Source: Candidatus Iainarchaeum sp.
Lineage (GTDB): Archaea > Iainarchaeota > Iainarchaeia > Iainarchaeales > JAFCCJ01
DNA: 38,458 bases
Direction: 5' to 3'
Assembly (NCBI GenBank): GCA_043816965.1
Contig: JBDRHK010000028.1
Location: 1-38,458 of the forward strand
Shown one piece after another: positions 5,981 to 24,264 of this stretch (position 1 is its first letter; each line of letters opens with the position of its first letter). The notes under the pieces were generated by a model. The model made no database searches. It had not been told where the DNA came from and saw only the letters and a list, made by a program, of their open reading frames with translations. A program made the translations under genes and the position numbers.

Positions 5981-6280
5981 ATGCACAGGATTTCGGTCAT
6001 GACAGAAAAAGTTTTCCTTTCCTCAAAAATAGAGGAGGAAATCCTCGAAATTGTCAGGGAAAACTGGCCAACCTCTGCCCTTGAAATAGCTGAGCATTTA
6101 GGTGAGGGCGTATCAACACGCGAGCTGCAGCGAAAGGCGTCAACCAAATATTCCTACTACTTAAAAAAACTAATCCGAAAAAAGATTTTGGTTTCAAAAA
6201 AGGCTGGCAACACAATGATTGTCTGGCCATTGGAAGTTGAAAAATACCGCACCATCCACTCAATCCTGAAGGGGGACTAA
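5981..6280 (+). CDS. Winged-helix transcriptional regulator
   Basis: ILEIVRENWPTSALEIAEHL...YYLKKL plus wing; TTTATATA ~30 nt upstream. Confidence 0.8.
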   Translation: MHRISVMTEKVFLSSKIEEEILEIVRENWPTSALEIAEHLGEGVSTRELQRKASTKYSYYLKKLIRKKILVSKKAGNTMIVWPLEVEKYRTIHSILKGD

Positions 6281-6282
6281 AA

Positions 6283-7498: not shown

Positions 7499-7917
7499 AT
7501 GTTGAGGATTGCATAAATGATGGTTTGCTGGTTAAAGTAAAAGCGGATGTTGAAAAGGCAAAAATGTCCCTGCAAATGGCAGAACACAAGATAGAATTGG
7601 CAGAAAAGGAATTCGAGCACGAAATCTTTGAAAACGCAATCATCAGTGCTTATACTTCGATGTTCCATTCTGCAAGGGCGCTCTTGTTCAAGGATGGCTT
7701 TAAGGAAAGAAGCCATTTTGCAATTTTTGTTTATGTGGACGAGAAATACTCCTCTAAAATCGAGAGAAAATACATCAATGAATTGCAGGCGCTGAGGATG
7801 CAGAGACATGAGCTTATGTATGGCCTTAGAAAAGGCCCTGAAATTGAGGAATCAGAAGCCGATTCCGCGATTAAGATGGCGAAAGGCTTTCTTGAATCTG
7901 TTGGAAAGATGGTTTAA
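7495..7917 (+). CDS. HEPN domain protein (UPF0332-like toxin)
   Basis: AYTSMFHSARALL, RSH, RHELMY; directly follows MNT. Confidence 0.9.
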   Translation: MNVEDCINDGLLVKVKADVEKAKMSLQMAEHKIELAEKEFEHEIFENAIISAYTSMFHSARALLFKDGFKERSHFAIFVYVDEKYSSKIERKYINELQALRMQRHELMYGLRKGPEIEESEADSAIKMAKGFLESVGKMV

Positions 7918-10092: not shown

Positions 10093-11034
10093 CTAAATAT
10101 ATTTAATATAAATCTTGAATAAATTTTCAAATGTTTTTTTATATTTTGCGAGAAAAAATCTTTCGAGGTTTTCAGCATAGCCATTGTCGTAATCGCTGAG
10201 GCATTTTAGGTATGCGGTCCTCTGGCTTTTTCTTATTATCAATGGGGCATATCCTTCATTCACCAGACCGACGTTAATTATGAATCTTCCGACCCTCCCA
10301 TTTCCGTCATCAAAAGGGTGTATTTTTTCAAACTTGCCATGGAAATGAGCCGCCTTTTGCAGCGGGTGCATGGTCTTTTCCTGTTTGAACCATTCAATAA
10401 GATTTTTCATCTCCCTTACTACCTCTTCAGGCGGCACTGTTTCAATCCTTCTCCCAAGCAGGAAATTCGGCAGCTTCTTGTAACCTGTTTCGATTTCCAT
10501 GTCCCTAACCAGCATTTTGTGCAGCTTTATGATGTCCTTCTCCTTTACCCTGAATTTATTCTTCAGAATAGCGTCAACCACTTTCCTGCTGTTTCTTGTT
10601 TCATAAATCTCCCTCAGGTCCTTGTCCTTTATCATCCTGTTCTCGAACATGACAATTGCGACGTCCTTAAGTGTAAGGGAGTTTCCCTCAAGCGCGTTGG
10701 ATTCATATGTGAAGTTTACGGTGAACCTGTCGAAGAGGTCCTGCAGTTGTTTCCTTGTCAGTTTTGAAGTGATTTTTTTGTATTCCTGTTTTGTAGTCTC
10801 AATTTTCAGGATTTGTTCTTTTGTGTAAACACTGTTGGTTTTGAACCGTTCAAGGGCATTTTTTCCTTTCAGCTCGTCCTCCTTTGCATTGAAATAAGCC
10901 GCAAGTTCAGGAGTGACCTTTCTTTTTTCCACCCTTTTGCTGAGTTTGGCCAGCTTTCCATTCGGCAGCCTGACCGAATGGACTGCATAGAGGTATTTCT
11001 TCCCCTTAATCTTTTTCTCGGAAAAATAAACCAT
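10093..11034 (-). CDS. Fic-domain protein (class II) with N-terminal KKIKGKxY domain
   Basis: HPFDDGNGRVGR; inhibitory SNALEGN helix; ATG at 11034. Confidence 0.93.
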   Translation of the reverse strand: MVYFSEKKIKGKKYLYAVHSVRLPNGKLAKLSKRVEKRKVTPELAAYFNAKEDELKGKNALERFKTNSVYTKEQILKIETTKQEYKKITSKLTRKQLQDLFDRFTVNFTYESNALEGNSLTLKDVAIVMFENRMIKDKDLREIYETRNSRKVVDAILKNKFRVKEKDIIKLHKMLVRDMEIETGYKKLPNFLLGRRIETVPPEEVVREMKNLIEWFKQEKTMHPLQKAAHFHGKFEKIHPFDDGNGRVGRFIINVGLVNEGYAPLIIRKSQRTAYLKCLSDYDNGYAENLERFFLAKYKKTFENLFKIYIKYI

Positions 11035-11041
11035 AATTATA

Positions 11042-11087
11042 GTTAACCCCACAAATTATTTAAACATATGGGTTTTGTGGTGTTAAC
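11042..11087 (-). promoter_or_regulatory. Inverted-repeat operator (13/14 bp arms) straddling the Fic TATA box
   Basis: GTTAACCCCACAAA-N18(contains TTTAAA)-TTTGTGGTGTTAAC. Confidence 0.75.
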
Positions 11088-11251: not shown

Positions 11252-12013
11252 ATGGCGATTGAAAAGGTAAAAACCGGAATCCAGGGTTTGGATAAGGCCC
11301 TTGAGGGAGGAATCCCGAAAAACAACGTTGTCCTTGTTTCAGGAGGGGCAGGTACAGGTAAGAGTACCCTCTGCATGCAGTACCTGATTAACGGCGCCAA
11401 ACTCTTTGGCGAAAAGGGATTGTATATATCCACTGAGCAGAAGAGAAAGGAACTGATTAAGGCAGGCTCCAATTACGGCTGGGATATTGAGGGCCTTGAG
11501 CAGAGAAACCTGCTCAAAATAGAATATTTCGATGTTGTGGCCAGCGACAATGCCCTCGAAAAGATTTACGATTTATACACCTCATTCACCCCCCAAAGAA
11601 TTGTGCTTGATTCCTTAACAACATTCACTGACTCACTTTTGGTTTCCGGTATGCGCGAAGACACCGCTTTCTCAATGGTGCAGGTGGCAGAATCAGTCTC
11701 GCCAATCCCGCGCACGGAAAAAGTGGTTGCGAAATCACTCCTTTACCATTTAATGAATAAAATCAGATTGTTTGATGCGACAGTAATCCTCACATCTGAA
11801 CTCCCCGAAAAGAGCAACTATCTTTCAGCAGATAATATTTCAGAGTTTATTTGTGATGGGGTAATGGTGCTAGAATACCTCTCAGTAGGTGCCTCAGTAT
11901 TCAGGAGCATGCGCATAAGGAAAATGCGCTACACTAACCACGAAAAGGGTTCCCTCCCCTATGAGTTAGGCCCAAAAGGCGTCAACTTCACCGAAAAGGA
12001 TTTGGAAATTTAA
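11252..12013 (+). CDS. Single-domain KaiC/RAD55-like RecA-superfamily ATPase
   Basis: KTGIQGLD, Walker A GGAGTGKS, RIVLDS, IRKMR. Confidence 0.92.
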   Translation: MAIEKVKTGIQGLDKALEGGIPKNNVVLVSGGAGTGKSTLCMQYLINGAKLFGEKGLYISTEQKRKELIKAGSNYGWDIEGLEQRNLLKIEYFDVVASDNALEKIYDLYTSFTPQRIVLDSLTTFTDSLLVSGMREDTAFSMVQVAESVSPIPRTEKVVAKSLLYHLMNKIRLFDATVILTSELPEKSNYLSADNISEFICDGVMVLEYLSVGASVFRSMRIRKMRYTNHEKGSLPYELGPKGVNFTEKDLEI

Positions 12014-12042
12014 TTTAACTCCCATTACAAAAGTTGGTTTAG

Positions 12043-12708
12043 ATGGCCATAGAAGAATTAATTTTCACAGACATTTTCACGCAAGCCGCTTTTTTCATAG
12101 TTTCTTTTGCCCTATTAGGTGCAGGTATAAAGTATGTTGACGATGCATTTGATGAAAGGACCTTTAGCAGAAAGAATGCACTGGTCATAGCAGTCATTAC
12201 TGCAATTCTCTGGGCATGGGTAATGTCCATCCATCCTGCAGCAGCCACAATTTTGGGGGCAGTAGTTATTGCAGTTTTGTTGAAGGGAAAGGTTGACAAC
12301 ATTGCCTTTCAAATTGGTGTTTTGGCGATTCTCGGAATAATGTTTGTTTCAGGATATTTTGAATTCTTCCTTTTCCCAATGGCAATAATTGCAATTGCCG
12401 GAATTGCGGATGAACTGGGAAACGACTATGTGGATAAGCACCCAAAAATAAATATTTGGATTTATTATTTTTTCGAGTACCGTTTTGTAATGAAATTGGC
12501 AGTTGCACTGTTTGCTTTCTTGGAAACTTACTCCTGGATTTTCTTTTTCGCATTTGTTGCGTTTGATATAGCATATGCGGGTGTAACCCACTACAGCCTA
12601 TATTTAAAGAATCTTCGCAAGTTCCATTTTAACGGAAAGGGCAACAATGTTAACGGCAATGGAAAAAGCCCAGTTAACAATAATGGTTTCCATCAGGTGC
12701 TTAAGTGA
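12043..12708 (+). CDS. Multi-pass membrane protein with Asp-rich loops
   Basis: About 6-7 hydrophobic segments; KYVDDAFDE, GKVDN, ADELGND. Confidence 0.8.
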   Translation: MAIEELIFTDIFTQAAFFIVSFALLGAGIKYVDDAFDERTFSRKNALVIAVITAILWAWVMSIHPAAATILGAVVIAVLLKGKVDNIAFQIGVLAILGIMFVSGYFEFFLFPMAIIAIAGIADELGNDYVDKHPKINIWIYYFFEYRFVMKLAVALFAFLETYSWIFFFAFVAFDIAYAGVTHYSLYLKNLRKFHFNGKGNNVNGNGKSPVNNNGFHQVLK

Positions 12709-13088
12709 AGAGAGAGGAAATAGTTAAGGTTTTGGAAGATCTATTGCGAATGGAAGACGTACTTGCCTGCATGGTGACGAAAAAAGGCCTTGAGGGAATT
12801 GTCCCCCCGGGAATGAAAGTCAGGGATATTAACCTCTGGAAAATGCTCCACGATTCAACCGACAAGCTTTTCGACATAATGGCCCAGTTTTACGATTATA
12901 AATTGGAGAGATTATACCTCGAGCTGGGCAAATACACCATAATAATTGCCCCCATTAGCAAGGCATTTGGTCTTATAGTCCTCATCCCCTCACTTGCCAA
13001 TATGGGCCTTTTGGACGTAGAAATCGAGAATTCCAAGAGAAAAATCAAGGAAATCGCCGATAAAAAGGATGTTGCGCAGCAGCAATAG
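12705..13088 (+). CDS. Roadblock/LC7-like domain protein
   Basis: Helix, then DVLACMVTKKGLEGI, then helix and beta-meander ending NMGLL; GTGA coupling to the upstream gene. Confidence 0.72.
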   Translation: MKREEIVKVLEDLLRMEDVLACMVTKKGLEGIVPPGMKVRDINLWKMLHDSTDKLFDIMAQFYDYKLERLYLELGKYTIIIAPISKAFGLIVLIPSLANMGLLDVEIENSKRKIKEIADKKDVAQQQ

Positions 13089-13131
13089 GTTAATTAAGTT
13101 CAAAAAACTAATTTCTTTTTGAGATGGTTGA

Positions 13132-14211
13132 ATGAAGTTGAATTGCGATGTACTAGTGATTGGCGCTGGGCCAGCTGGACTTTCTGCTGCAAGAGCAGCT
13201 GCTTTAAGCGGAGCAAAAGTTATTTGTCTTGAGAAGAAAAAAAAAATTGGCGAACCAGTTAAATGTGCTGAAGCTATTGGAAATTATTTGTTGGATAAAA
13301 ATCCATTCAAAATACCTAGAAAATATCTTCTCTGGAAAATTAATGGCATAATTTTTAGGAATTCAGACCTAACTTATGTTGGTAAAGGGCCATTTTGGGA
13401 AGGATATTCCATTAACAGGATCTTTTTAGAAAGATGGGTATATTCTTTGGCTATTGGTGCCGGGGCTAGAATATTGTTAGATTCTGAATTTATATCTGCA
13501 ACAGAAAAACAGGATGGAGTTTTAGTTTCGTGCAGAATTAGAGGAGTTTCTCGCGATATTTTTTCAAAAAAACTGATTGCCGCAGATGGTGTTGATTCAA
13601 ATGTTCTTAAAAGTTTAAATAAATATAAAAAAAGAAAATTTGGTACAGCAAAAATTTGTTCATTTGAAATAAAATCTAATTTTATCAAGAATCGTCACTT
13701 TGAACAGATATTTTATGATTATTATGCTCCTCAAGGTTATGCCTATATTTTTCCTAAAGGTAAAAATCTCGCCAACATAGGAGTTGGAACTTTTAAAAAA
13801 AATGTAGAGCCATATTTTTCAGAATTCATTGAAGATCCATTAATTAAGCCGCAACTAAAAAAAATGGAAATATTAGCCGATAAATCACACTTAGCTTCCT
13901 TTGAAAATCCAGTAAATAAAATTGCATGGGGGAACATAATCGGGGCTGGGGATTCAGTCAATCAAAATCTCAAACCTTTCATAGAGGGAATTATTCCAGC
14001 TATTATCTGTGGAGATATTGCGGGGAAGTATTCTGTAAAAAGATTGAATGATTCTTTGAATAGAGATGAATATATTGCGGAGATTAATAATGTTTTGGGA
14101 TCCGAATATGACCTATCAAATTCAGTTATGTCGGATATGAAAAAAATATTTGAGAAGCCAGTCAAGAAATGTGCAAATCTTCTTTTTTTGAGAATTAAAA
14201 AAATCAACTAA
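13132..14211 (+). CDS. Geranylgeranyl-reductase-family FAD oxidoreductase
   Basis: IGAGPAG, PVKCAE, AADG, GYAYIFPK, AGD. Confidence 0.88.
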   Translation: MKLNCDVLVIGAGPAGLSAARAAALSGAKVICLEKKKKIGEPVKCAEAIGNYLLDKNPFKIPRKYLLWKINGIIFRNSDLTYVGKGPFWEGYSINRIFLERWVYSLAIGAGARILLDSEFISATEKQDGVLVSCRIRGVSRDIFSKKLIAADGVDSNVLKSLNKYKKRKFGTAKICSFEIKSNFIKNRHFEQIFYDYYAPQGYAYIFPKGKNLANIGVGTFKKNVEPYFSEFIEDPLIKPQLKKMEILADKSHLASFENPVNKIAWGNIIGAGDSVNQNLKPFIEGIIPAIICGDIAGKYSVKRLNDSLNRDEYIAEINNVLGSEYDLSNSVMSDMKKIFEKPVKKCANLLFLRIKKIN

Positions 14212-15466
14212 TTGTAAGTAAATTGTAGGAATGAGTTCTAACATTTAATTTATCCCCTGTCGCAAAATGTTCTCCCCCACAATATACGACTAAGTAGGAA
14301 TCATTGATTATTGATTCGAGTTTTTCTTTTTGTTTGTATATTTTACCACCTAGAGCTTCCATTCCAGTTTCACAAGCAACTATTAAAACAAGTTTATTTT
14401 TTTTCTCGAGAATATTTTTAAAATTTATAGGTGAATTTACGATTCGTTCCCCACTTGCAGATAATAATTTTATGTTTTTCGTTTTCAATTTATGCCCAAT
14501 TGCTAAATTTCCGCCATATATAGCTCCTATTGTTGTTGTGAAAGAATCATCGTCAGATATAGATATGGGGAAATAAAATGTTGTCCTATATAATTGTTCT
14601 AAATTCTTAAAAATTTCTTTGGAAAAACCTAATTTAGTTAACAATGCAATTGTTGCGGGTTCTCCGTTTAGACTTTTTATTACTCTCCCTTCAGTACTTT
14701 GGCCATCTACTTTAAAACAGACGTTTGTCTTGGTCATTTCTGGAAAGCCTCCAACAAAAATTTTGTTATTGGTGTAAATGAACATTCCCGTAACGCCATT
14801 CTTTAAAACTTTATCGTTGCAAAATTGATAATTTGAAATCAGTTTCCCATTGTCAGTTGTTGAACCACCAATGATGGCTGTTTTTTCTCCCTTAATTATC
14901 TCGTCTAAAACTTCCTCCTCTTTACCAACACCAAACTCAAGAAATGAACTTAATCTCAATCCAAAAGTAGACATTAAATCACCAATAAATTTCGAACCTA
15001 CTAAGTTTGTTTTTTTGATAAAAGGAAGACTAGGGATTGAAGGTCCTGAAATAAAATCAATCAAAACACCATCACTATATTTTTCCGGCTGTTTTTTTCT
15101 AAATAAATTTATAAATTCTTTGCCGGCCTTTTTTGGATTTCTTTTTGTATTGTGAGCTAGGCCAGTCACAACATCTAATTCGTCAGAATAGCACGATAAA
15201 ATTGTTAGTCCTCGTGAAAAAACTCCAGATTTATTCATAAATCCGGCAACCGTTCCACCAACGAGAGCCGTTTCTTTAGGAACGTTTTCATAAACTGTTT
15301 TTAGTATTTTATTTAATCCGCCATTTTTTTCATAATGTATCGTACTAAATAATAAAATAAATGTCGGTTTTTGTGATAATTTATTTAAAGATTGAGCCAA
15401 TGCTTCTCGGGCAGCTAATTCTGCCTCCCATTTTTGACTAGTTCCAATACCTACTTCAAAAACCAT
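14204..15466 (-). CDS. Stand-alone FIST (N+C) sensor domain protein
   Basis: GGTVAG, IIGGSTTD, YQF, RVIKSLNGEPA, VACE, YCGGE. Confidence 0.82.
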   Translation of the reverse strand: MVFEVGIGTSQKWEAELAAREALAQSLNKLSQKPTFILLFSTIHYEKNGGLNKILKTVYENVPKETALVGGTVAGFMNKSGVFSRGLTILSCYSDELDVVTGLAHNTKRNPKKAGKEFINLFRKKQPEKYSDGVLIDFISGPSIPSLPFIKKTNLVGSKFIGDLMSTFGLRLSSFLEFGVGKEEEVLDEIIKGEKTAIIGGSTTDNGKLISNYQFCNDKVLKNGVTGMFIYTNNKIFVGGFPEMTKTNVCFKVDGQSTEGRVIKSLNGEPATIALLTKLGFSKEIFKNLEQLYRTTFYFPISISDDDSFTTTIGAIYGGNLAIGHKLKTKNIKLLSASGERIVNSPINFKNILEKKNKLVLIVACETGMEALGGKIYKQKEKLESIINDSYLVVYCGGEHFATGDKLNVRTHSYNLLTIS

Positions 15467-15503
15467 TTTATCTAAAGAATATAAGCGTTTATAATATAAA
15501 TAT

Positions 15504-16346
15504 CTATTTAAAATTTTTTCCCCAAATATCTTCGGCTTCTTGCCTTAATTTGTCGGCTAAATATGGATTTTTAGTTAATATAACATTTATTTCAGTTGGT
15601 TTATTTAATATTTTTTCAAAATACTCCTCAACAGATATGTCCTTTGCATTTTTTATAGAACTATAATAATTATCAACATCAGTTATGAATCCCATTTCAT
15701 AATAAGTCTCCCCTATGTAGTCTCCCTGGATAAATGTGTCCTCTTTGCATGAAAATTTAGTTCCTGTTGTTGACTTCTTCCCTAACTTGGCTAGATAATT
15801 TGCATTCCAATTATCTAAAAAAGTATCTTTAGCATTAATTCCATAATGGTTGCAATAACTGAACATTTTCTTGAAATTATCATGTTCTACATCGCTCGCC
15901 CCTATTGCTCCGAAAGCGTGACGCATAAAGCATACGGCGTTCTTTTTTTCAGGATTAGGAAATTGAATAAAAAAGTCATTTACAAGAAATCTCGCTAGTT
16001 CCATAAATTTATTGAATTTAAGATTTAACGGTCTTGAATTTTCGAAGTTAATTTTACTTTTAGGGTTGGAATAAATTTGTTCCAGTTCATTACCAAACTT
16101 ATTTACACTTTTTATCCACTCCTTGTTTATTTCCAAATCTTTTCCATTTTTCACCATCACCCCTTCATTCTGAAGTTGCACAATAATCTTATGAACTGCC
16201 TGATAGGATATTTCAACTCCATATTCCCTTTGAAGAGCATTATAAATTTCCTTAGTTGTCAATGGCCACTTCCTTGAAAGTATTGAAATTATCTTGTCCT
16301 TATTTGAAGCCGATTTCATTTCTGGTAAAGTTATATTTATCGTCAT
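15504..16346 (-). CDS. wHTH plus putative ligand-binding domain, paralog 3 of tandem triplet
   Basis: ISILSRKWPLTTKEIY...SYQAVHK; QGD; KNPYLADKLR. Confidence 0.85.
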   Translation of the reverse strand: MTINITLPEMKSASNKDKIISILSRKWPLTTKEIYNALQREYGVEISYQAVHKIIVQLQNEGVMVKNGKDLEINKEWIKSVNKFGNELEQIYSNPKSKINFENSRPLNLKFNKFMELARFLVNDFFIQFPNPEKKNAVCFMRHAFGAIGASDVEHDNFKKMFSYCNHYGINAKDTFLDNWNANYLAKLGKKSTTGTKFSCKEDTFIQGDYIGETYYEMGFITDVDNYYSSIKNAKDISVEEYFEKILNKPTEINVILTKNPYLADKLRQEAEDIWGKNFK

Positions 16347-17206
16347 TTTTTAGCCCCCTCAAAATACCTATCAATTATCTGCTTCCTCAGCAATTCAGCC
16401 AGTGCCGGGTTTTTTGTTATTTTAACTGTTGCATGCATTTCGGGTGGCTGTTTTATCAGGCCAAATTTCCTATATAAATCATCCAATCCGTGCAGCTCAC
16501 CATAAGATTCTTTTATTATTTTCAATGACTCATCGGAAAACTTTGTTTCCACAATAGAATCTCCCTGAATGAGCATATCCTCTTTCAAGCCTATTTCAGT
16601 TCCGATAGGAGCAGCTATTCCGCCAACTCTTACATACTGTTTTAATATCCAGCGCCCAAAGGGAGTATCGTTGGTGAGGATTGCATAAGCCTTTGGGTTA
16701 TTTTTCGTCATTGTTGCCAGCAACTCCAAATCTTTGAATTTGAATTTAAATGGCCACCACCCATATTTCATAAGAGTAATAACTGTATTTGGCCCGTTTC
16801 CGACAAGCACCCTGCTTGCCATGATTCTTGCCATTGTTACGCAAAATAAACTGTAATCGTTGAATTCGAATGTAATTGTACCTTCGAAGTTAGGGGCTAT
16901 CTCATATTTTCCAAAGGAATCAGAATACCTTTTGTCAATTTCTGTGAAAAATCCTTTTCCCCTTTTAATCCATTGATTACTCAACTCATAATCTTTTGCG
17001 CGTTTTTCTATAACACAATTTTCTTCCATATCAGTTAATATTTTATGAATCGCTTGGTATGAAATCTCTGCACCAAACTCTCTGATTAAAGTGTTGTAGA
17101 TTTCCATTGCAGAAAGCGGCCATCTTTCACTGAGAATTGATACTATCTTCTCCTGCGTGGAGGCATTATTAGCATTCAACTTCAGCAAACTCAAATTACT
17201 TGTCAT
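16343..17206 (-). CDS. wHTH plus putative ligand-binding domain, paralog 2
   Basis: VSILSERWPLSAMEIY...SYQAIHK; QGD; KNPALAELLR; ATGA overlaps on both sides. Confidence 0.85.
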   Translation of the reverse strand: MTSNLSLLKLNANNASTQEKIVSILSERWPLSAMEIYNTLIREFGAEISYQAIHKILTDMEENCVIEKRAKDYELSNQWIKRGKGFFTEIDKRYSDSFGKYEIAPNFEGTITFEFNDYSLFCVTMARIMASRVLVGNGPNTVITLMKYGWWPFKFKFKDLELLATMTKNNPKAYAILTNDTPFGRWILKQYVRVGGIAAPIGTEIGLKEDMLIQGDSIVETKFSDESLKIIKESYGELHGLDDLYRKFGLIKQPPEMHATVKITKNPALAELLRKQIIDRYFEGAKK

Positions 17207-18024
17207 TTCTTCCCCCCCTTAAAATACCCCAACATCTTCCCCCTCAATTGTTTCGCCAGTTCAGGATTTTGGTTTATTGTAATCGGAATTTTGGTCTTTT
17301 TTTCGAACACATTTTCGAACATTGAGCTCATGTCAAATTCCGAAATATTGTTGCAGGAGGAATAGATTTTGTCAAGTTCCTTTATAATTTCTTTAGGATA
17401 ATAGACCTGAATCACAAAATCCCCGTAAACTATGAAATCAGGAGTATTGAGGTCTATTCCGCATTTCATCCTGACCTTGCTGCTTGTCCAGAATTTCTCG
17501 CACCATTGGTCCAAAACAGTTGAGGATTTGCTTATGCCGTATGAATCGCTTGCTTCAATCATTTCTCTCATCCTCCGGTAGGTTTCCTTCTGGAAAAGGG
17601 GAATCCAGAAATGGCTCCAGTATATGCAAAATGTCTGCCTTTCCGGGGACATTATTTTCTCAGCCAGTTCAACCATGAAACTGTCCAGGTTGTAAATGGA
17701 ATCAAGGTAGAAATTGTTACTGCCTGAACCATTGGAAAAGGAAGCAAAACTTTCCTGCATCATTTTTGCGAAATTCCCGATGCGCTCAACCCATTCAGGA
17801 TTTATTGAATATGCCAACTCATCTACGCATATTATTTTTTCCTTCTCTAATTCCTTCAAAATCTTATGCGCAGCCTGATAAGAAACAGCAAACCCGTTCT
17901 CCCTCTGGAGCTTGTTATAAATCTGCTTCGCGGAAAGAGGCCATTCCTGTGAGAGAATGGAAATTACCGCATCGCGCGTAGTTTTCGGCTGCCCTATTTT
18001 AGGCAGTATTATGGTCCCCACCAT
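17203..18024 (-). CDS. wHTH plus putative ligand-binding domain, paralog 1
   Basis: ISILSQEWPLSAKQIY...SYQAAHK; YGD; QNPELAKQLR; leaderless ATG at 18024. Confidence 0.85.
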   Translation of the reverse strand: MVGTIILPKIGQPKTTRDAVISILSQEWPLSAKQIYNKLQRENGFAVSYQAAHKILKELEKEKIICVDELAYSINPEWVERIGNFAKMMQESFASFSNGSGSNNFYLDSIYNLDSFMVELAEKIMSPERQTFCIYWSHFWIPLFQKETYRRMREMIEASDSYGISKSSTVLDQWCEKFWTSSKVRMKCGIDLNTPDFIVYGDFVIQVYYPKEIIKELDKIYSSCNNISEFDMSSMFENVFEKKTKIPITINQNPELAKQLRGKMLGYFKGGKK

Positions 18025-18054
18025 AGAATATAGGTAATAGCATAGAAATCCTTT

Positions 18055-18080
18055 AAAAATCAACTTTTTGGTTGATTTTT
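18055..18080 (-). promoter_or_regulatory. Perfect palindromic operator AAAAATCAAC-N6-GTTGATTTTT overlapping the TATA of the triplet operon
   Basis: 10-bp perfect arms; TTTAAA at 18052-18057, ~30 nt from ATG 18024. Confidence 0.8.
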
Positions 18081-18105
18081 GCTTAAATTGCAAAAGGGAA
18101 GGGAT

Positions 18106-18516
18106 TTAATGGGGTTTTCCGAGCAATTCGCCTGTTGTGATGACCTTTACCTTTCCCTGCTTTTTGAGTGCCCTGTCGTTAGACCAGAGGGCGCAATTCA
18201 GGTGCAGTGCAAGCGCAATATATGCCGCATCATCAGGGTCGGGGGAAATCCCTGCCGCTTCCTCCATCCGATAGCTAAATTCCTCAAAAGGAATTATTCT
18301 GATTTCAGAAACATCAATCAGTGTTTCAAGCAGACCTGAAATTTCCTTTTCTTTCAGGCCAGTTTTTTTGTTTAAGGTTGGCAGATGCTTCCTGAATTCA
18401 TGGATGGTTTTCTCCGGAACGTAAAATTCGCTGCCTGAGAAAAGCAAAATGCTTCGGGTATCTCTGGCCTTGATGAGCGCGGAAAAGATTATGTTCGCGT
18501 CCACCACAAGAATCAA
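18106..18516 (-). CDS. PIN-domain (VapC-like) toxin
   Basis: VVDANIIFSAL, DPDD, LWSND; TTG start. Confidence 0.92.
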   Translation of the reverse strand: MILVVDANIIFSALIKARDTRSILLFSGSEFYVPEKTIHEFRKHLPTLNKKTGLKEKEISGLLETLIDVSEIRIIPFEEFSYRMEEAAGISPDPDDAAYIALALHLNCALWSNDRALKKQGKVKVITTGELLGKPH

Positions 18517-18521
18517 GGCAA

Positions 18522-18746
18522 TCAGCTCTTCATAAACTTTTTGGAAACCTCATGCTTTAGCTTTTTGCCCAAAGCAAGGGTGTCCTCCTCAGATAGCCTG
18601 CTTTTTGAAAGCTGCTCATCCATTTTTTCCATAATCCTTATCCTTTCCACTATTGCCTTTCTTGCAACTGCCGACCAGTTCATTTCAGGGAACATCGCCA
18701 TTTTTTGTTTCAGCTCATCCGGGACGGATATTGTTACCGTAGACAT
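18522..18746 (-). CDS. RHH/CopG-like antitoxin
   Basis: STVTISVPDELK...NWSAVARKAI; GAGGTGA SD; ACTGTG-N4-CACAGT operator at 18767-18782. Confidence 0.88.
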   Translation of the reverse strand: MSTVTISVPDELKQKMAMFPEMNWSAVARKAIVERIRIMEKMDEQLSKSRLSEEDTLALGKKLKHEVSKKFMKS

Positions 18747-18874
18747 AGAAACATCACCTCATATAAACTGTGTTAGCACAGTATTTAATTATATCGCCCT
18801 GCTTTCCCGAATCCAATATTGCCGGCCGATTTGCCTGAATTTTCCTGCCCATCACCCATAGTAAGGAATGAGTT

Positions 18875-18925
18875 CCCGGGAGTTAAATATCTTCGGTTGA
18901 TTGGAAATCAATTGAATGGTTGATT
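18875..18925 (-). promoter_or_regulatory. Promoter with three ATCAAC-type half-sites plus TATA (leftward)
   Basis: 38/51 ungapped identity to 23776-23826 on the opposite strand. Confidence 0.7.
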
Positions 18926-19035
18926 CCAAATTTACCTCTCCAGAACCCCTACTTTCCTCACATGGAAACCATTCCCAGTTATAACCAAAACTGCAATAAT
19001 ATCCATTTTTAATGATTTCTGGTGTTAACTATTTC

Positions 19036-20013
19036 ATGTTTATTTCGAAAAGGAAGATTAAGGGAAAGGATTACTTTTACCTAGAGGACAGAATAAGCGG
19101 GAAAAGGCTCAGCTTTTTTCTGGGGAGCCAGGAACAGGCCAGGGAAAAGATGGAGGAATCTTTTGATGGCCTGATTAGGGAGAAGGCATTGGAAAGCGCA
19201 AAAAATGCCCAAAAAAAATTCAGGCTGAAAAGCCTGGCATTCAGTGATTTGCTGCTGCTGGAAAGGCTGAAAATTGATTTTGAAATACTCGGGGATTTTT
19301 TCCCTGAGGGATTCAGGTCATTCCGCGAGGATGAGTTTGTCAGGTATGCCCAGGGAAGCGCCTCTGTGGAGGGGAACTCCCTGAGCCTGCAGGAGGCGAA
19401 CATTGTTCTTACAAAAGGCGCGGCAATAGCCGGCAAAAAGATTGATGAGATAAGGGAAATTGAGAACATGAAGAAAGCGGCGGAAGTATCGGAAAAGGCA
19501 AGAGAAATAAATGAGCTAAACATAAAAAAAATACATTCGGCAATAATGAAAGGGTTTGATGAAAAGAAGCCGGGCGAATACAGGGAGGAACCAATATTTA
19601 TCCAGGGCTCAAAAGTCAAGACAGCCAATGCTGGAAAGGTCGGGGGCGAGATGAAAAAGCTTGTTGGATGGTACAAAACAGGCGTGGGAAAGGCGCACAT
19701 GGTTGAACTGGCTTCAGAATTCCACGCAAGGTTCGAGCAAATACACCCATTTTTAGACGGTAACGGAAGGTCAGGGAGAGAAATACTTAATGTAATGCTG
19801 CAAAATGAGGGTTTCCCAAGGGCAATAATAAATCTTGAGAATAGGCAGAGCTATGTTTCGCTGCTGGAAAGGGTACAGCTCTCGAAAGAGCATTATAAAT
19901 TCACCAGATTCATATTCGGGTGTCTCGAGGAAAGGGCAAAAGAGATAGAAGCGATTATAAATGAGAACAAAAAACTGATTCTTGGCAAAATAATGGGGAA
20001 AGCCCTGAAGTAA
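19036..20013 (+). CDS. Fic-domain protein (class II) with N-terminal RKIKGKxY domain
   Basis: HPFLDGNGRSGR; SASVEGN; ATG at 19036. Confidence 0.93.
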   Translation: MFISKRKIKGKDYFYLEDRISGKRLSFFLGSQEQAREKMEESFDGLIREKALESAKNAQKKFRLKSLAFSDLLLLERLKIDFEILGDFFPEGFRSFREDEFVRYAQGSASVEGNSLSLQEANIVLTKGAAIAGKKIDEIREIENMKKAAEVSEKAREINELNIKKIHSAIMKGFDEKKPGEYREEPIFIQGSKVKTANAGKVGGEMKKLVGWYKTGVGKAHMVELASEFHARFEQIHPFLDGNGRSGREILNVMLQNEGFPRAIINLENRQSYVSLLERVQLSKEHYKFTRFIFGCLEERAKEIEAIINENKKLILGKIMGKALK

Positions 20014-20080
20014 AATCAACCAGATACCAATTCTGTAATCTACAGAATAGTCACACAACGGAGAAGGCGGAATTTTATCT

Positions 20081-20154
20081 TTCCCGCCGGAAACCCCCCT
20101 TAAGTAAAATCGCACCGGAAACCCGCTCTCCCCAGAAATGATTTTAAACCACTT
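20081..20154 (+). repeat. 74-bp direct repeat, copy 1 (promoter-containing)
   Basis: 68/74 identical to 22401-22474. Confidence 0.92.
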
Positions 20155-20213
20155 TTGGGGATTATTAAAATGGCCGGTGCCTGAAAATCCGGGGAGAAAG
20201 CCTTATAAATAAC

Positions 20214-20234
20214 ACTATACATTTAATGTATAGT
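20214..20234 (+). promoter_or_regulatory. Perfect palindromic operator ACTATACATT-T-AATGTATAGT
   Basis: 10-bp arms between TTATAAAT and the toxin start codon. Confidence 0.8.
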
Positions 20235-20241
20235 AACCTGT

Positions 20242-20580
20242 GTGGTTACTGTGGCGAAATGGAAGAAATTTTCAATACCATTAACAACAACGGATTTGCT
20301 TGATGTTAAATTGGAGGTTGAGAATGGCAAAGTGACGGGATTTGCATTGAATTACCGGACAAAGATTGGGGGAAATTACCATGAAGTGTATCGGGTGGAT
20401 ACGGCTCACGGGCAGCTGCATGAACAGAAATACTGGATTTCACCCTACCCAATCCCGCTAAAAGCCCTCGTAGGCGATATCAACTATAATGCCACGTTTT
20501 ATGTTTTGGAAATAAAGAAAAATTTTGAAAGATACAAAAAATACTTTCTGGGGAAAAGAGGAGAAACGCATGAAGTATAA
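20242..20580 (+). CDS. Putative toxin, RxDxAHG family (TumE/DUF6516-like)
   Basis: YRVDTAHGQLH motif; precedes and overlaps an HTH gene. Confidence 0.7.
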   Translation: MVTVAKWKKFSIPLTTTDLLDVKLEVENGKVTGFALNYRTKIGGNYHEVYRVDTAHGQLHEQKYWISPYPIPLKALVGDINYNATFYVLEIKKNFERYKKYFLGKRGETHEV

Positions 20581-20956
20581 AATGACTGATGAGAAGTGGG
20601 ACACTGTGATGGCGTTCCTGAATAAGGTACTGGAACACCCGGATAGATATCCGGATAAAGGGTTTTTATTGAGCCTGTCTGATGATGAGATGACACAGGT
20701 TTTTACAAAGAAAAGGCTGGAATTGATAAGGCTAATTCAGGGGAAGAAGCCAAAAAATGCCACAAAACTGAGTGAATTAACCGGCAGGCGGCTTAGCGCT
20801 GTAATGCGGGACCTGGGCCTGTTGCAAAAATTTCACATAGTGGAACTGGAAAAGAGGGGCAAGAACATTGTTCCGAGGGTGACAAAGGAGATTCTGATAC
20901 TGCCGCTAGTGGAATTAAAGCCGAAAAGGCTGGCCGAAATAGAGGCGAGCGCATAG
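20570..20956 (+). CDS. HTH antitoxin (HVO_A0114/MarR-like)
   Basis: FTKKRLELIRLI...LSELTGR...VMRDL; AGGAG SD, ATG at 20570. Confidence 0.8.
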   Translation: MKYKMTDEKWDTVMAFLNKVLEHPDRYPDKGFLLSLSDDEMTQVFTKKRLELIRLIQGKKPKNATKLSELTGRRLSAVMRDLGLLQKFHIVELEKRGKNIVPRVTKEILILPLVELKPKRLAEIEASA

Positions 20957-21043
20957 GGCGGAATTTAGTGGGTAAAATAATGCGGATGACTATGCTCAGC
21001 TTTGCACCAAAAACAATTTATTGGTAAAGTGGCGAATAATTAT

Positions 21044-21727
21044 ATGGCTTTCTGGTTTACTCATGCGTTGGTTGCGTTTGGCGCATTGCAGAAATTGGAA
21101 AAGAAGGACGAATTCTCCTCTTTCGAGCAAATCGACGATTATCTGTTTGGCGCTGTTGCGCCCGACATAAGATATCTTGGGGACAGGGGCCGGAATGCAA
21201 CCCACGAGCCATTTGGGGGGAAATCGGCATTTGAAGCGTTTCATGGCAAAAATTGCTCAGCAGCATTTCTATCTGGCTATGAAAGCCACCTGGTCTGCGA
21301 CAAGATTTGGGGCGGAGAATCTGAGGAACTCAAAGAAAGCGTTTATGATTTTTTCAATCTAAATCCAAGCAACCTGGCTGAAAAGTTTTCCCTGTATTTC
21401 TTTGTTGACGATTATTTTCAGGGACAGGGCAATTGGTTTTATCCATTGCTCTTTGCAGGCAATGTTTTCAGGGCAAATGAAACCACCGCTTTGCGCCTGC
21501 TAGATTTCAATGATAATGAGATAAATTCCTTCAAACTTGCAGCATCCCTTTTTCTGAAGGAGCCTGGAATGAATTTCTTTCAGGCCCTAAATCTCGCAAG
21601 AATTCCCTTGGAAGAAAAAGCCATGTCCGAAATAGTAAAATCCTTTACCTCCGCAGACGAATATTTGAACCGCTTTCTTGAGATTTCAATAGGCGAGTCT
21701 GCCAAGGCAATTAATGGGCAATTGTGA
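21044..21727 (+). CDS. Zinc-dependent phospholipase C/P1-nuclease-like metal hydrolase
   Basis: N-terminal WFTH, GAVAPD, TH, GYESHLVCD metal-ligand pattern. Confidence 0.65.
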   Translation: MAFWFTHALVAFGALQKLEKKDEFSSFEQIDDYLFGAVAPDIRYLGDRGRNATHEPFGGKSAFEAFHGKNCSAAFLSGYESHLVCDKIWGGESEELKESVYDFFNLNPSNLAEKFSLYFFVDDYFQGQGNWFYPLLFAGNVFRANETTALRLLDFNDNEINSFKLAASLFLKEPGMNFFQALNLARIPLEEKAMSEIVKSFTSADEYLNRFLEISIGESAKAINGQL

Positions 21728-22346
21728 TGCAATGCTTCGGGTTCTTTCGTTTTTCTTATTATGTTTCGTGTTTTCCTTTGCAGCCATATTTATTTTTTCT
21801 GCCCCATTGATGATTCTTGCCACTCCAACTTCAACCCAAATGAAAGTTATTGATGTTGACAATCCAAAAAATCTGCAAGTAGAATTCTCTGATTCCCTGC
21901 GCTCGGACGATGATTTCGTTTTCTATGAGTTCAGGCTGAATGCTCAGGAGCCTGTCACATTAAAGAAATTAACCCTCTCAGAAGAGGGCGAACAAGAAAC
22001 CAAAGAGCTTGATGCTTCCTTGGGCAAATATGGCTCCGCCATTATTTCACCTGCAGATAACAAACCAAAACAAAACCAAGGTGCTTTGATTTCAGGCCCC
22101 CAAATGATAACGGCCCGCGAGACATTCCGGCACGAGTACGATCTAGAGGAAACATTTCTTATCGCAGAATTAACTGACGAATATATGCTAAACGCAGACT
22201 ACGAATTCGAAGAGGGAACAGTCAATGTCAAATACCTTTTCACGGACAAAGAGATTCATGCTTTCTGGTTTTTCTTCCGGGCAATCCCAATTTTTGTTTC
22301 AATCATTTTAACTGCCCTGTTTGCCATTATTTTGTTCCGAAAATGA
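21714..22346 (+). CDS. Membrane protein (N- and C-terminal TM, acidic external domain)
   Basis: Two terminal hydrophobic segments; overlaps the upstream gene. Confidence 0.7.
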   Translation: MGNCDAMLRVLSFFLLCFVFSFAAIFIFSAPLMILATPTSTQMKVIDVDNPKNLQVEFSDSLRSDDDFVFYEFRLNAQEPVTLKKLTLSEEGEQETKELDASLGKYGSAIISPADNKPKQNQGALISGPQMITARETFRHEYDLEETFLIAELTDEYMLNADYEFEEGTVNVKYLFTDKEIHAFWFFFRAIPIFVSIILTALFAIILFRK

Positions 22347-22400
22347 TTCTTATGATTCTCAAAAATCATTAGGGCTGGGCACAGATGCAGGCATCTGTAT

Positions 22401-22474
22401 TTCCCACAGGAAACCCCCCTTAAGTAAAACCGCACCGGAAACCCACCCTCCCCAGAAATGATTTTAAATCACTT
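22401..22474 (+). repeat. 74-bp direct repeat, copy 2
   Basis: 68/74 identical to 20081-20154; TTTTAAA ~30 nt before ATG 22492. Confidence 0.92.
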
Positions 22475-22491
22475 CTCGAGCTTTTAGAATA

Positions 22492-22878
22492 ATGAAGAAA
22501 CAATTTTCAGTGGAAGTTCTGGAGCCGAGAAATTCCCTGCTTACCTTGCCCCTGCCTGATGAAATAATGAAAAAATACAAATTGAAACATTTTATGGCGG
22601 CAAACTGGGGGATAGGGAAGAACGGGATGAAGATTAGCTTCTCCAAAACCGTAAAAATCAAAGTAGGCCTTGACAGGAAAACCCTGAATATGCTAAAGCA
22701 AATAATGGCTGAAGAAGGCTGGGGTTCAATAGATGAAGTGGTTAACAATGCAGTTCTAAAATTCGGTCGCGAGCTCGGATTCAAGGGGAAAACAGACATA
22801 ATAACTTTCATTTACCCGATGGATTATTTCAAGAAAAGGTACTGGACGATAGGGGATTATGAAAAAAGGAAGGTTTAA
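22492..22878 (+). CDS. Hypothetical protein, possible AbrB-like plus RHH-like segments
   Basis: SLLTLPLPDEIMKKY and IKVGLDRKTLNML...SIDEVVN. Confidence 0.6.
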   Translation: MKKQFSVEVLEPRNSLLTLPLPDEIMKKYKLKHFMAANWGIGKNGMKISFSKTVKIKVGLDRKTLNMLKQIMAEEGWGSIDEVVNNAVLKFGRELGFKGKTDIITFIYPMDYFKKRYWTIGDYEKRKV

Positions 22879-22934
22879 ATATGATGGGTAATAAATATAT
22901 TATAGATAATAACTTTATATCTGGTGGTTTGATT

Positions 22935-23204
22935 ATGGCTGAAAAAACAGCGCAAGTGCTGCATTACCCAACCCTTAAAACTGTTTTGATGGTCGAGGAA
23001 ATACTAAAAGAATCAAAGGAGCCCCTCACAAGATATGAGATAATGAAAAGGGCCAAGAACAAAATAATGCGCCAGACCCTTAACACAATAATTGAATATC
23101 TTGAGAATAGGGGGATGGTCTTAGACAGTGAAAAGGGCGTTATCTGGACCTATACTCCCCCGGAAAAGATGAAAAAATGGCTGAAAGATAGTGTAGAAGT
23201 ATGA
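22935..23204 (+). CDS. wHTH putative antitoxin
   Basis: HYPTLKTVLMVE...QTLNTIIEYLE; ATGA overlap with the next gene. Confidence 0.82.
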   Translation: MAEKTAQVLHYPTLKTVLMVEEILKESKEPLTRYEIMKRAKNKIMRQTLNTIIEYLENRGMVLDSEKGVIWTYTPPEKMKKWLKDSVEV

Positions 23205-23551
23205 AAGCAAGAGTCAGGATCAGGGGGCAGGCTCTTGAGGAATACGACAGGTTAAAGGAAACAGTCAAAAAAGAGCATGAAAAGGGCACTGAAAAATCAG
23301 AAAATATCACCTTGCTTCGTTCTATAAACCAGAAGATAGATTGGCTTAAGGAAAATCCTCTGCGCGGGGAGGTAGTCAGTAAGAAAGATATTCCAAAAGA
23401 ACTGGCTGTGGACAACCTCTTCAAACTGAGGCTTGCAAAATTCTGGAGAATGCTTTACACAATTCGCAGAAACGAGATAGAAATATTCTGCTTTATATTA
23501 GTGATAGAATCACACGAGGATTATGATAAAAGATTCAAGAAGAAAAAATAA
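23201..23551 (+). CDS. RelE/HigB-like putative toxin
   Basis: NPLRGE, NLFKLRL..FWRMLYTI, HEDYDK. Confidence 0.75.
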   Translation: MKARVRIRGQALEEYDRLKETVKKEHEKGTEKSENITLLRSINQKIDWLKENPLRGEVVSKKDIPKELAVDNLFKLRLAKFWRMLYTIRRNEIEIFCFILVIESHEDYDKRFKKKK

Positions 23552-23576
23552 AACCAAAGATGGGGTGGTTATAGGG

Positions 23577-23675
23577 GTGAAAAAAGTTAGGCTGATAAAG
23601 GATCTTTTTGGAACAGCGAAATTCAAGAAAAGCGCGCAGGAAATCAAGGATGAAATGAGGGCCGGGTGGGACTAG
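23577..23675 (+). pseudogene. C-terminal remnant of an AbrB/VapB-type antitoxin (or a 32-aa mini-protein)
   Basis: KKVRLIKDLFGTAKFKKSAQEIKDEMRAGWD*. Confidence 0.5.
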
Positions 23676-23775
23676 TTGCAGGGTACTGCAACGACCTCTA
23701 CAATGTAATGAATAACTTTGAATTTGTAAAATAAGCCAGAGCACGCAAGCCAGGATTAAAACGGCTTTTCCTAAA

Positions 23776-23826
23776 AATCAACCATTTGGTTTATTTCTTA
23801 TCAACCGCAGCTATATTAATACCCGG
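23776..23826 (+). promoter_or_regulatory. Promoter with three ATCAAC-type half-sites plus TATA (rightward)
   Basis: Mirror homolog of 18875-18925; AAAAATCAAC-N6-GTTTATTT matches the 18055 operator. Confidence 0.7.
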
Positions 23827-23839
23827 AACAGGATACTAT

Positions 23840-23908
23840 CAGGCGGAACATCTAGACCATTTGGCCAGGTGGTGAGCCTGCCCAGTACCCCCCTGCAAAG
23901 GGGGGTAC
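23840..23908 (+). ncRNA. Candidate structured 5' leader or small RNA
   Basis: CAGGC/GCCUG plus CAUCU/AGGUG stem; 10-bp stem with GCAA tetraloop at 23885-23908. Confidence 0.45.
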
Positions 23909-23937
23909 GTCCATTTAATTTTGAGGGGGGAAAGTTC

Positions 23938-24264
23938 ATGAGTGAATTCGGGTTAAACATCGTTAGCGCCGCGCTTTTCAAACTCGCGGAAGAGGGGGAA
24001 ATTTCAATTGAGGAGGCGAAAATCCTGAAATGCTTAACTGAAAGTGGGAAGATGAAATTATTTTCAATTGCGCAACGCATCGGCTTAAATTCCGGGGAAA
24101 TTTACCGCCCGCTCGCCAACCTCCTGGAACGCAAGATTGTGGCTGAGGAAAACGATTCCTATTTTGTGGAAGGTGTATGGGAAGTTATGGGGAAATTGCT
24201 CCTGCTCACTGAAGAAAAACAAAAAACAGAAGCAATTATTTTGGAGGCAACTGCCCGAGAATAG
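23938..24264 (+). CDS. TrmB-like wHTH protein
   Basis: EAKILKCL...IAQRIGL...IYRPLANLLERKIV; G-rich SD. Confidence 0.75.
   Translation: MSEFGLNIVSAALFKLAEEGEISIEEAKILKCLTESGKMKLFSIAQRIGLNSGEIYRPLANLLERKIVAEENDSYFVEGVWEVMGKLLLLTEEKQKTEAIILEATARE

Follow-up and report, generated by a model that had tools for sequence, protein, structure and literature searches.

A tandem array of predicted TrmB-like winged-helix paralogs with a conserved promoter palindrome and a neighbouring FIST protein in a DPANN archaeon

We analysed a stretch of 38,458 nucleotides (nt) from Candidatus Iainarchaeum sp. (contig JBDRHK010000028.1; hereafter the window), in which three paralogous genes, termed P1, P2 and P3, lie in tandem on the minus strand behind a perfect palindrome and are followed on the same strand by a gene for a stand-alone FIST protein. 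P1 (18024..17203) encodes 273 amino acids (aa), P2 (17206..16343) 287 aa and P3 (16346..15504) 280 aa; the products are predicted to consist of a wHTH (winged helix-turn-helix) domain, a helix and a PLD-like domain. Both paralog junctions (P1/P2 and P2/P3) are ATGA overlaps, and the FIST gene (15466..14204, 420 aa) comes after a short spacer. The results suggest that P1, P2 and P3 belong to a large, unnamed DPANN branch of the TrmB/TrmBL2 architecture and that the palindrome is the operator of this family. The window carries archaeal markers (fibrillarin, Nop5, NMD3, archaeal phosphopantothenate synthetase and a KaiC-like ATPase) and is syntenic with a contig of Candidatus Iainarchaeum archaeon, locus L001 of the comparative set described below, with flanking proteins that are 84-95% identical. 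Because Iainarchaeota fall within the DPANN kingdom Nanobdellati, this synteny bears out the DPANN origin that had been assumed in an earlier inspection of the same DNA (hereafter the sequence-only reading).

The open reading frame of P1 was listed with a TTG start at 18093. This TTG lies upstream of the palindrome, and the family hidden Markov model (HMM) matches the translated frame only from residue 24 onwards; P1 therefore probably begins at the in-frame ATG at 18024. Overall pairwise identity among the three paralogs is 25-32%, with 40-50% over the first 80 alignment columns versus 19-25% in the C-terminal part, and the motifs SILSxxWPL, SYQAxHK, GD and NPxLAxxLR are invariant across all three. 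The sequence-only reading had described three translationally coupled paralogs with a closely conserved N-terminal wHTH and a more divergent C-terminal domain, and both descriptions hold, the second also across the wider family. In the four-gene array of L001, gene 1 shares 88% identity with P1 and gene 2 shares 91% with P2, but gene 4 shares only 55% with P3.

None of the three proteins matched a Pfam or NCBIfam family at its cut-off, with weak generic winged-helix matches only, and the same held for 146 family members searched against Pfam. The sole relative named by a source carries the label "hypothetical", so that the paralogs are, as had been proposed, wHTH proteins of an unnamed family. 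We modelled P3 with AlphaFold2 on an alignment of 146 sequences, and a second model was built on a shallower alignment. The P3 model reached a pLDDT of 92.2 and comprises a winged helix at residues 15-73 (helices at 15-60, wing at 64-73), a long helix (75-93) and, over residues 107-279, an alpha/beta domain. In a Foldseek search against the PDB, ranks 1 to 8 were TrmBL2 chains (5bpd, 5bpi, 5box and 5bqt; E 8.6e-9 to 7.5e-6) and rank 9 was TrmB (3qph; ranks 9-10 over both models), with probabilities of 0.99-1.00 for TrmBL2 and TrmB, followed by the PLD-fold proteins Nuc, Zucchini, NucT, MITD1 and FAM83. The shallow-alignment model gave the same list. The PLD-like domain alone aligned with Nuc (1byr) at a template-modelling (TM) score of 0.61 by target. 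In the ESM Atlas, the nearest clusters are unnamed and mostly from Nanobdellota, and TrmB and Regulator_TrmB clusters are structural neighbours (TM 0.41-0.46); a feature-level Atlas match to FilR1_middle scored 0.85, below the level that counts as more than a lead.

The P3 model thus contains the three parts of the TrmB fold, a wHTH, a helix, which in TrmB is amphipathic and serves dimerisation, and a PLD-like alpha/beta domain. The sugar-binding subdomain is absent, and P1, P2 and P3 end after the PLD-like domain at 273-287 aa. We take PF11495, the Regulator_TrmB family, to belong to Pfam's PLD clan. On the predicted structure, P1, P2 and P3 are a divergent, unnamed branch of the TrmB/TrmBL2 architecture that TrmB sequence models do not recognise, and the TrmB- or PLD-like C-terminal fold that the sequence-only reading had put up for structure prediction is what the model and the Foldseek ranking return. 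The modelled chain, with a DNA-binding output and a candidate sensor domain in one polypeptide, fits a one-component architecture. The earlier label of a candidate undescribed one-component signalling system stands for the family; it falls for the kind of system, which appears to be of the TrmB/TrmBL2 type.

The PLD-like domain is predicted to be non-catalytic. If these domains were instead active nucleases or phospholipases, the cluster might be a defence or toxin system in an island rich in toxin-antitoxin (TA) genes; the fold does match Nuc, NucT and Zucchini, and PIN, Fic and HEPN/nucleotidyltransferase genes lie nearby. We rejected this explanation as very improbable: the catalytic motif HxK(x)4D occurs in 0 of the 146 members, PADLOC matches none of P1, P2, P3 or FIST, and the TA-like genes are insertions that are absent from the syntenic L001.

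Conservation is concentrated in the part predicted to read DNA. Over 146 sequences, the putative recognition helix at residues 48-60 is nearly invariant at Y48 (98%), Q49 (99%), A50 (90%), H52 (92%) and K53 (97%). Y48 opens this helix and, by residue number, may correspond to Y49-Y51 of TrmB, TrmBL1 and TrmBL2. A tyrosine at position 49-51 is given as the key DNA contact in a review of the TrmB family (PMC4158304).

A word-index homology search with P3 found only three relatives. An exhaustive profile search recovered 2113 cluster representatives (clustered at 50% identity) at E<=1e-3, of which 451 were at E<=1e-30, and nearly all of them are from DPANN. Among the best 150 representatives, 142 are single proteins of 198-302 aa, and the other eight (369-644 aa) carry one wHTH with two (seven proteins) or three (one protein) C-domains. 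For comparative analysis, genome contigs were scanned with a profile built from a 6-sequence alignment, which yielded 36 loci with flanks of up to 8 kb. By record name, 14 are from Iainarchaeum or "ainarchaeum", three from Micrarchaeota, two from Aenigmatarchaeota, 16 from an "archaeon" or "uncultured archaeon" and one, a 2.2-kb contig (L031), from Candidatus Falkowbacteria. L031 is the only bacterial-labelled record with family genes, and its first gene pairs with an Iainarchaeum gene (L014) at a support of 100 in the approximate likelihood ratio test (SH-aLRT); it is likely a mis-binned archaeal contig and not a case of transfer.

The family HMM found members in 35 of the 36 loci, and in 20 of these 35 they form arrays of two to eight genes, the largest in L006. 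Overlaps of 4 nt occur at 28 of 51 intra-array junctions. A tree of 83 full-length members places P1, P2 and P3 in three separate deep clades (termed B, A and C, respectively). These have 17, 27 and 27 rows with SH-aLRT supports of 93, 99 and 99, and each clade covers several DPANN groups. Arrays usually mix the clades, as in BACC, BCCAA, CBAAC and CCCCACAB as well as BAC in the window; L008 is an exception (CCC). Conserved in all three clades are 16 positions in the DNA-binding part versus 6 in the C-terminal part, which is twice as long. Beside or near the arrays we also observed family genes that encode a winged helix only (94-161 aa), some of them with an operator of their own: L002 2794-3162, L003 6739-7053, L006 12223-12549, L013 1853-2137, L027 9105-9590, L030 3424-3774 and L036 361-744. 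Their products might compete for the operator or provide DNA binding to separate sensors such as a stand-alone FIST protein.

The palindrome upstream of P1, termed O1, reads AAAAATCAAC-N6-GTTGATTTTT (18055..18080), with arms that are 100% complementary and a core of AATCAAC-N6-GTTGATT at 18058-18077. Its promoter-proximal arm is overlapped by a TATA-like TTTTTAAA (18052..18059, minus strand) about 30 nt upstream of the P1 ATG, which probably acts as a promoter element of P1. Two further sites in the window differ from the core by one mismatch each: O2 (23776..23795) lies upstream of a gene for a small TrmB/IclR-type wHTH protein, and the operator-like O3 (18906..18925) lies between an RHH/PIN gene pair and a Fic gene inside an inserted island, with an extra GTTGATT half-site just upstream. 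At the 14 specified bases of the core and with at most one mismatch, these three sites in the window compare with 0.01 expected, and none of 100 shuffles reached three.

The same element recurs in other genomes. Across the 36 loci, we found 17 sites with at most one mismatch in 13 loci, 11 of them perfect, versus 0.1 and 0, respectively, in 20 block shuffles. All 20 sites, those of the window included, have a spacer of 6 nt, and spacers of 3-5 and 7-9 nt gave none. By a crude gene call, 19 of the 20 are intergenic; O1 was flagged as intragenic only because of the upstream TTG start of the P1 reading frame. Nine sites lie directly upstream of family genes, and a site with at most two mismatches is found within 220 nt of 10 of 47 family promoters versus 15 of 420 other genes. 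The O1 20-mer is identical in L001, at the same distance (43 nt from centre to start codon) before the orthologous array. A relaxed core, AACC-N4-GGTT, occurs 23 times versus 5.0 times in shuffles; directly against TTTAAA and 33-36 nt before family genes, it is found in L012 and L020 (Aenigmatarchaeota) and in L017, L024 and L033 (unassigned archaeal metagenome-assembled genomes), with a close variant in L013. An operator next to TTTAAA was likewise seen in L007, L012, L017, L020, L024, L033 and L035.

These patterns make the palindrome a strong candidate, as a phylogenetic footprint, for an autoregulatory operator. A palindromic operator at or near the protein's own B-recognition element (BRE) and TATA box is a trait of the TrmB family, and at the sequence level it is present here, with O1 overlapping TTTTTAAA and the arrangement kept in other loci. 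The sequence-only reading had noted a perfect palindrome of two 10-nt arms around N6 on the TATA box of the operon; it is there, and it proved to be a conserved cis-element at array promoters in other genomes. Outside the arrays, perfect or near-perfect operator copies lie upstream of genes for a lysine/ornithine-type decarboxylase (L035 3169-4617), a thymidylate-synthase/methyltransferase fusion (L015 11405-12661), a radical-SAM-like protein (L006 12630-13634) and a NUDIX protein (L026 11132-11686), and in the window before the Fic gene and the small wHTH gene, which hints at a wider regulon.

The palindrome could alternatively be read as RNA, namely as the hairpin terminator of an upstream PIN gene. 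It lies 26 nt beyond the PIN stop, on the strand that encodes PIN, and can form a 9-bp hairpin, with a U-rich 3' stem arm, within a structure of -10.8 kcal/mol. This fold is only marginally better than that of shuffled sequences (z -2.0; 9 of 200 shuffles fold as well), the sequence itself and not only its pairing is conserved at 20 sites, and the L001 site lies in a divergent promoter with no gene to terminate, the PIN gene having arrived with a later insertion. We consequently rejected the terminator, which has next to no probability in our estimate. Neither an Rfam scan nor a tRNA scan returned a match in the window.

The L001 promoter also bears on which protein might bind the palindrome. 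In L001, a gene for a small TrmB/IclR-type wHTH protein is divergent from the array, and between the two lie a pair of operators separated by 17 nt, the second of which is identical to O2. The corresponding gene in the window (23869..24264, plus strand) encodes 131 aa with a wHTH that differs from the family type. In the window, the 17 nt that lay between O2 and O1 in the ancestral promoter are interrupted by an insertion of about 5.7 kb (18094..23775), which is absent from L001 and contains PIN, RHH-like, Fic (PADLOC SoFic / PDC-S04), DUF7718, HVO_A0114 and PLC-like genes and small open reading frames. By this comparison, the ancestral promoter had two operators, which the insertion drove apart: one is now found in front of P1, the other in front of the gene for the small wHTH protein.

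The palindrome might accordingly be the operator of another factor, for instance the small wHTH protein, which would then regulate the paralogs. O2 lies just upstream of the TATA-like region of the small gene, this gene and the array share the two-operator region in L001, and small wHTH repressors are commonly autoregulatory. However, the small gene was found in only three of the 36 loci (L001, L003 and L032) besides the window, even if it could lie elsewhere in those genomes, whereas the palindrome occurs in 13 of the 36, 11 of which have no small gene in the fetched flanks, and the family recognition helix is as conserved as the operator. We regard this alternative as unlikely and retain the paralogs themselves as the probable binders.

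We next turn to FIST. The protein contains FIST N (PF08495; 67.4 bits against a Pfam cut-off of 23.2, residues 35-269) followed by a divergent FIST_C-like region: FIST_C (PF10442) was not detected at E<=0.1, and residues 279-415 align with the FIST_C region of a protein from L032, which carries FIST N and FIST_C and aligns with the window protein end to end. Of the FIST N+C protein that the sequence-only reading had placed downstream on the same strand, the N-terminal half is confirmed, and the C-terminal half is, by this alignment, a candidate FIST_C domain. The window protein belongs to a family of stand-alone proteins of 415-450 aa from DPANN and Thermoplasmatota (250 matches, 120 of them listed), and PF10442 is present in 9 of the 120 listed. 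The NosP equivalog NF041558 scored 37.3 bits against a cut-off of 450. The spacer between P3 and FIST (15467..15503, minus strand, 37 nt) is AT-rich and contains a TATA-like ATATTTATATTATAAA, so that FIST may have a promoter of its own; because of this stretch, the gene may not be under O1 and is perhaps outside operator control.

A phmmer search with the window protein found a relative within the fetched flanks of 7 of the 36 loci; Pfam confirmed FIST N in six of them, and the seventh (L019) holds a C-terminal fragment at a contig end. FIST is one to five genes away from a family gene in L004, L018, L019 and L032. Locus L013 contributes a 512-aa protein that joins the family winged helix (HMM E 8e-29) to FIST N and FIST_C and is encoded by the first gene of a family array. 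Searching with the first 130 residues of this fusion, we obtained four wHTH-FIST proteins, from records of Micrarchaeota and Aenigmarchaeota; in all four, Pfam FIST domains accompany a family-type winged helix and FIST stands in place of the PLD-like domain. As judged from domain composition, the fusions show that the family wHTH is used with a recognised sensor domain. The linkage is nonetheless a minority trait, at 8 of 36 loci with the fusion counted. The gene-neighbourhood survey that had been suggested for FIST therefore yielded recurrent adjacency in a minority of loci and four fusions.

Convergent to FIST lies an operon (11252..14211, plus strand) that encodes a KaiC-like ATPase (11252-12013), a membrane protein (12043-12708), a Roadblock/LC7-like protein (12705-13088) and a geranylgeranyl-reductase-like flavoprotein (13132-14211). 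The Roadblock/LC7 assignment comes from an Atlas structure comparison (TM 0.89); a profile search of the same protein against PDB sequences found nothing. The reductase and FIST genes overlap by 8 nt at their stop regions (14204-14211), with no terminator spacer between the convergent genes. The sequence-only reading had stated that no kinase or cyclase is present here; FIST is indeed not next to a histidine kinase or cyclase, but the KaiC-like ATPase operon had been overlooked.

This operon gives rise to the most serious doubt about FIST, which could belong to the convergent KaiC-like/membrane/Roadblock/reductase module and have no direct link to the regulators. FIST was found only in loci of the KaiC-membrane-Roadblock type, with a Roadblock-like gene in L008, L018, L019, L027, L029 and the window, and L001, which has the alternative UbiA-V4R cassette, has no FIST. 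A low G+C content of 31-34%, versus about 42% in the surroundings, is common to the FIST, P3 and reductase genes, and the TATA-like stretch before FIST points the same way. Against this stand the four fusions of a family-type wHTH to FIST N and FIST_C, one of them (L013) first in a family array, and the four places (L008, L027, L029 and the window) at which FIST directly adjoins a family gene, with three orientations among them. We consider the module explanation doubtful on balance, though by some way the likeliest of the alternatives discussed here, and keep FIST as a candidate sensor for the family wHTH.

Taken together, the predicted fold, the conserved helix and the footprint lead us to favour, with moderate confidence, the reading that P1, P2 and P3 are site-specific, autoregulatory TrmB-like factors that bind the palindrome AATCAAC-N6-GTTGATT. 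Several observations weigh against it. PF01978 matches 0 of the 3 window paralogs (E<=0.1) and 2 of 146 members (E<=0.01), PF11495 matches 0 of the 146, and the family profile searched against PDB sequences finds no TrmB chain and chance-level matches only. The full-length TM score to TrmBL2 is low, at 0.33-0.38, because domain orientations differ. No ligand pocket was identified in the C-domain, in which just 6 positions are conserved over all three clades, and at the threshold used there are no fixed C-domain residues specific to any of the three clades. No site with at most two mismatches precedes 37 of the 47 family promoters, operator copies precede unrelated genes too, and O2 fronts a different wHTH gene whose product could be its binder. 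FIST is absent from 28 of the 36 loci, including the closest relative, L001. Finally, the closest structural relative, TrmBL2, is described in PMC4158304 as a chromatin protein that binds without sequence preference.

This last point opens a different explanation, in which P1, P2 and P3 are TrmBL2-like chromatin or nucleoid proteins that form abundant homo- or hetero-oligomeric filaments of low specificity, and the arrays supply variants of a subunit rather than sensors. TrmBL2 ranks first in both Foldseek searches, it is of the same size and likewise lacks the sugar-binding subdomain, no ligand site was identified in P1, P2 and P3, and the concatenated C-domains suggest oligomerisation. A coating protein would not account for a specific 20-bp palindrome with a fixed spacer that is kept at these promoters across phyla, and because of this conservation we favour a site-specific factor and think a chromatin role improbable. 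The two roles are compatible, since TK0471/TrmBL2 also represses when it is bound to a promoter, again according to PMC4158304.

For the favoured reading, we propose the following mechanism. P1, P2 and P3 would be sequence-specific transcription regulators, each with a wHTH whose recognition helix starts with the near-invariant S-Y-Q-A-V-H-K; the long helix probably dimerises, and the non-catalytic PLD-like domain would serve as effector or oligomerisation module. Dimers are expected to occupy the 20-bp palindrome, and because O1 overlaps TATA/BRE, occupancy should block TBP/TFB and repress the operon, a step modelled on TrmB at malE. Further operator copies, before the small wHTH gene at 23869 and in the inserted island, would bring other promoters under the same control. 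Because the paralogs keep the DNA-reading residues and differ in the C-terminal domain, they would encounter each other at shared operators, where they either compete as homodimers or assemble into mixed oligomers, so that several inputs could converge on one operator. FIST would be an alternative sensor module that replaces the PLD-like domain in some relatives and is a separate protein after the array here, and the circuit may also receive input from the KaiC-like operon. We infer DNA binding, repression, ligand sensing, hetero-oligomers, signal integration and contact between FIST and the regulators, and hold heteromer formation and direct FIST contact with less confidence than the core reading.

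A bolder combination of ideas, which we offer as speculation and consider rather unlikely as a whole, would make the arrayed paralogs interchangeable subunits of one regulator that assemble through their PLD-like domains on a shared operator. Sensor modules (PLD-like variants and FIST) and DNA-binding modules would be fused, split (into wHTH-only genes and stand-alone FIST) or concatenated (one wHTH followed by two or three C-domains); DPANN archaea, with their reduced genomes, would use the family as their main combinatorial switch of transcription; and this switch would connect with a KaiC-like ATPase hub as well as with lipid genes (geranylgeranyl reductase and UbiA prenyltransferase) that these symbionts require to deal with membrane lipids from the host or of their own making.

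The most constant neighbour of the family arrays is the KaiC-like ATPase operon. Within the 36 loci, a KaiC-like ATPase gene is a neighbour in 22, a V4R gene in 18, a geranylgeranyl-reductase-like flavoprotein gene in 10, a UbiA prenyltransferase gene in 7, and a membrane protein gene and a Roadblock/LC7-like gene in 5 each; all of these except UbiA are also present in the window. Between the KaiC-like gene and P2, window and L001 differ by a cassette swap (12043-16346 in the window, 7153-12022 in L001): the window cassette, with 31-34% G+C, comprises the membrane protein, the Roadblock-like protein, the reductase, FIST and P3, and that of L001 comprises genes for UbiA, V4R, a reductase and a membrane protein together with two members of the family. 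Each type of cassette is found again in further DPANN loci, with FIST in loci of the KaiC/membrane/Roadblock variant.

Other differences from L001 lie elsewhere in the window. Two more insertions are a nucleotidyltransferase/HEPN pair (6950-7917), which separates the V4R gene from the FTHFS gene, and another Fic gene (10093-11052), which separates the AdoMet decarboxylase gene from the KaiC-like gene; TA-like genes seem to gather at intergenic joints of an otherwise conserved region. A Penicillinase_R-type wHTH gene (99 aa) lies directly before a V4R-domain gene (5981-6846), and the pair, which is 88-90% identical in L001, is possibly another split regulator/sensor pair. A 275-aa protein without a Pfam match (27398-28225) shares only 38% identity with the protein encoded at the corresponding place in L001, with neighbours (a beta-CASP nuclease and NMD3) that are 84-95% identical; its gene is fast-evolving or was replaced.

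DPANN archaea have small genomes with few recognisable regulators, and we know of no DPANN transcription factor that has been studied experimentally. If the favoured reading is true, a family of more than 2000 clusters of hypothetical proteins can be given a fold, a likely target site on DNA and a logic for its promoters, and the operator becomes a testable predictor of regulons in uncultured archaea. The arrays would then be a natural case of many paralogs on one operator, FIST, whose partners are mostly kinases and cyclases, would gain a direct transcription-factor output, and the TrmB/TrmBL2 architecture would reach well beyond Euryarchaeota.

An archaeal one-component regulator of the TrmB/TrmBL2 type with a palindromic operator at its own promoter is already known. 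To the extent that we found none of them in libraries or the literature, the family, how large it is and its confinement to DPANN, the arrays in which as many as eight paralogs would share one operator, the operator sequence and the wHTH-FIST fusions are new here: literature searches returned no paper that deals with the family, the palindrome or a fusion of wHTH and FIST, and searches on FIST returned none on a wHTH-FIST fusion or archaeal FIST signalling.

Among known systems, TrmBL2 (TK0471 / PF0496; 5bpd, 5bpi, 5box and 5bqt) is the nearest in build, with 264 aa against 273-287 aa in P1, P2 and P3 and the same order of wHTH, long helix and PLD-like domain without a sugar-binding barrel; it lacks about 70 residues that correspond to the sugar-binding subdomain of TrmB (PMC4158304). 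It differs in having no detectable sequence similarity to P1, P2 and P3 and, according to PMC4158304, in being a single conserved gene whose product binds coding and intergenic DNA as a chromatin protein, whereas the family described here combines a specific, conserved palindrome with arrays that reach eight genes and occurs in DPANN. TrmB and TrmBL1 (Tgr) are one-component archaeal regulators with a Tyr-led recognition helix, autoregulation and palindromic operators at or near BRE/TATA, traits that are predicted for P1, P2 and P3 as well. In PMC4158304, TrmB-family operators are palindromic at BRE/TATA, repression works by blocking recruitment, and the TGM reads TATCAC-N5-GTGATA, which resembles ATCAAC-N6-GTTGAT of the operator found here. 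In contrast to TrmB and TrmBL1, P1, P2 and P3 have no sugar-binding subdomain, PF01978 or PF11495, and their neighbours are not sugar-transport genes.

With the FIST sensors, including NosP, the window protein shares a FIST N domain above the Pfam cut-off and, more closely, membership in the stand-alone FIST family of 415-450 aa. Unlike NosP, it scores far below the equivalog cut-off, has no adjacent histidine kinase or cyclase and is linked to a wHTH by adjacency and, in relatives, by fusion. The neighbourhoods of the arrays finally resemble archaeal KaiC-like ATPase signalling neighbourhoods, in that a single-domain KaiC-like ATPase is accompanied by Roadblock/LC7-like, V4R, membrane protein and wHTH genes beside the arrays.

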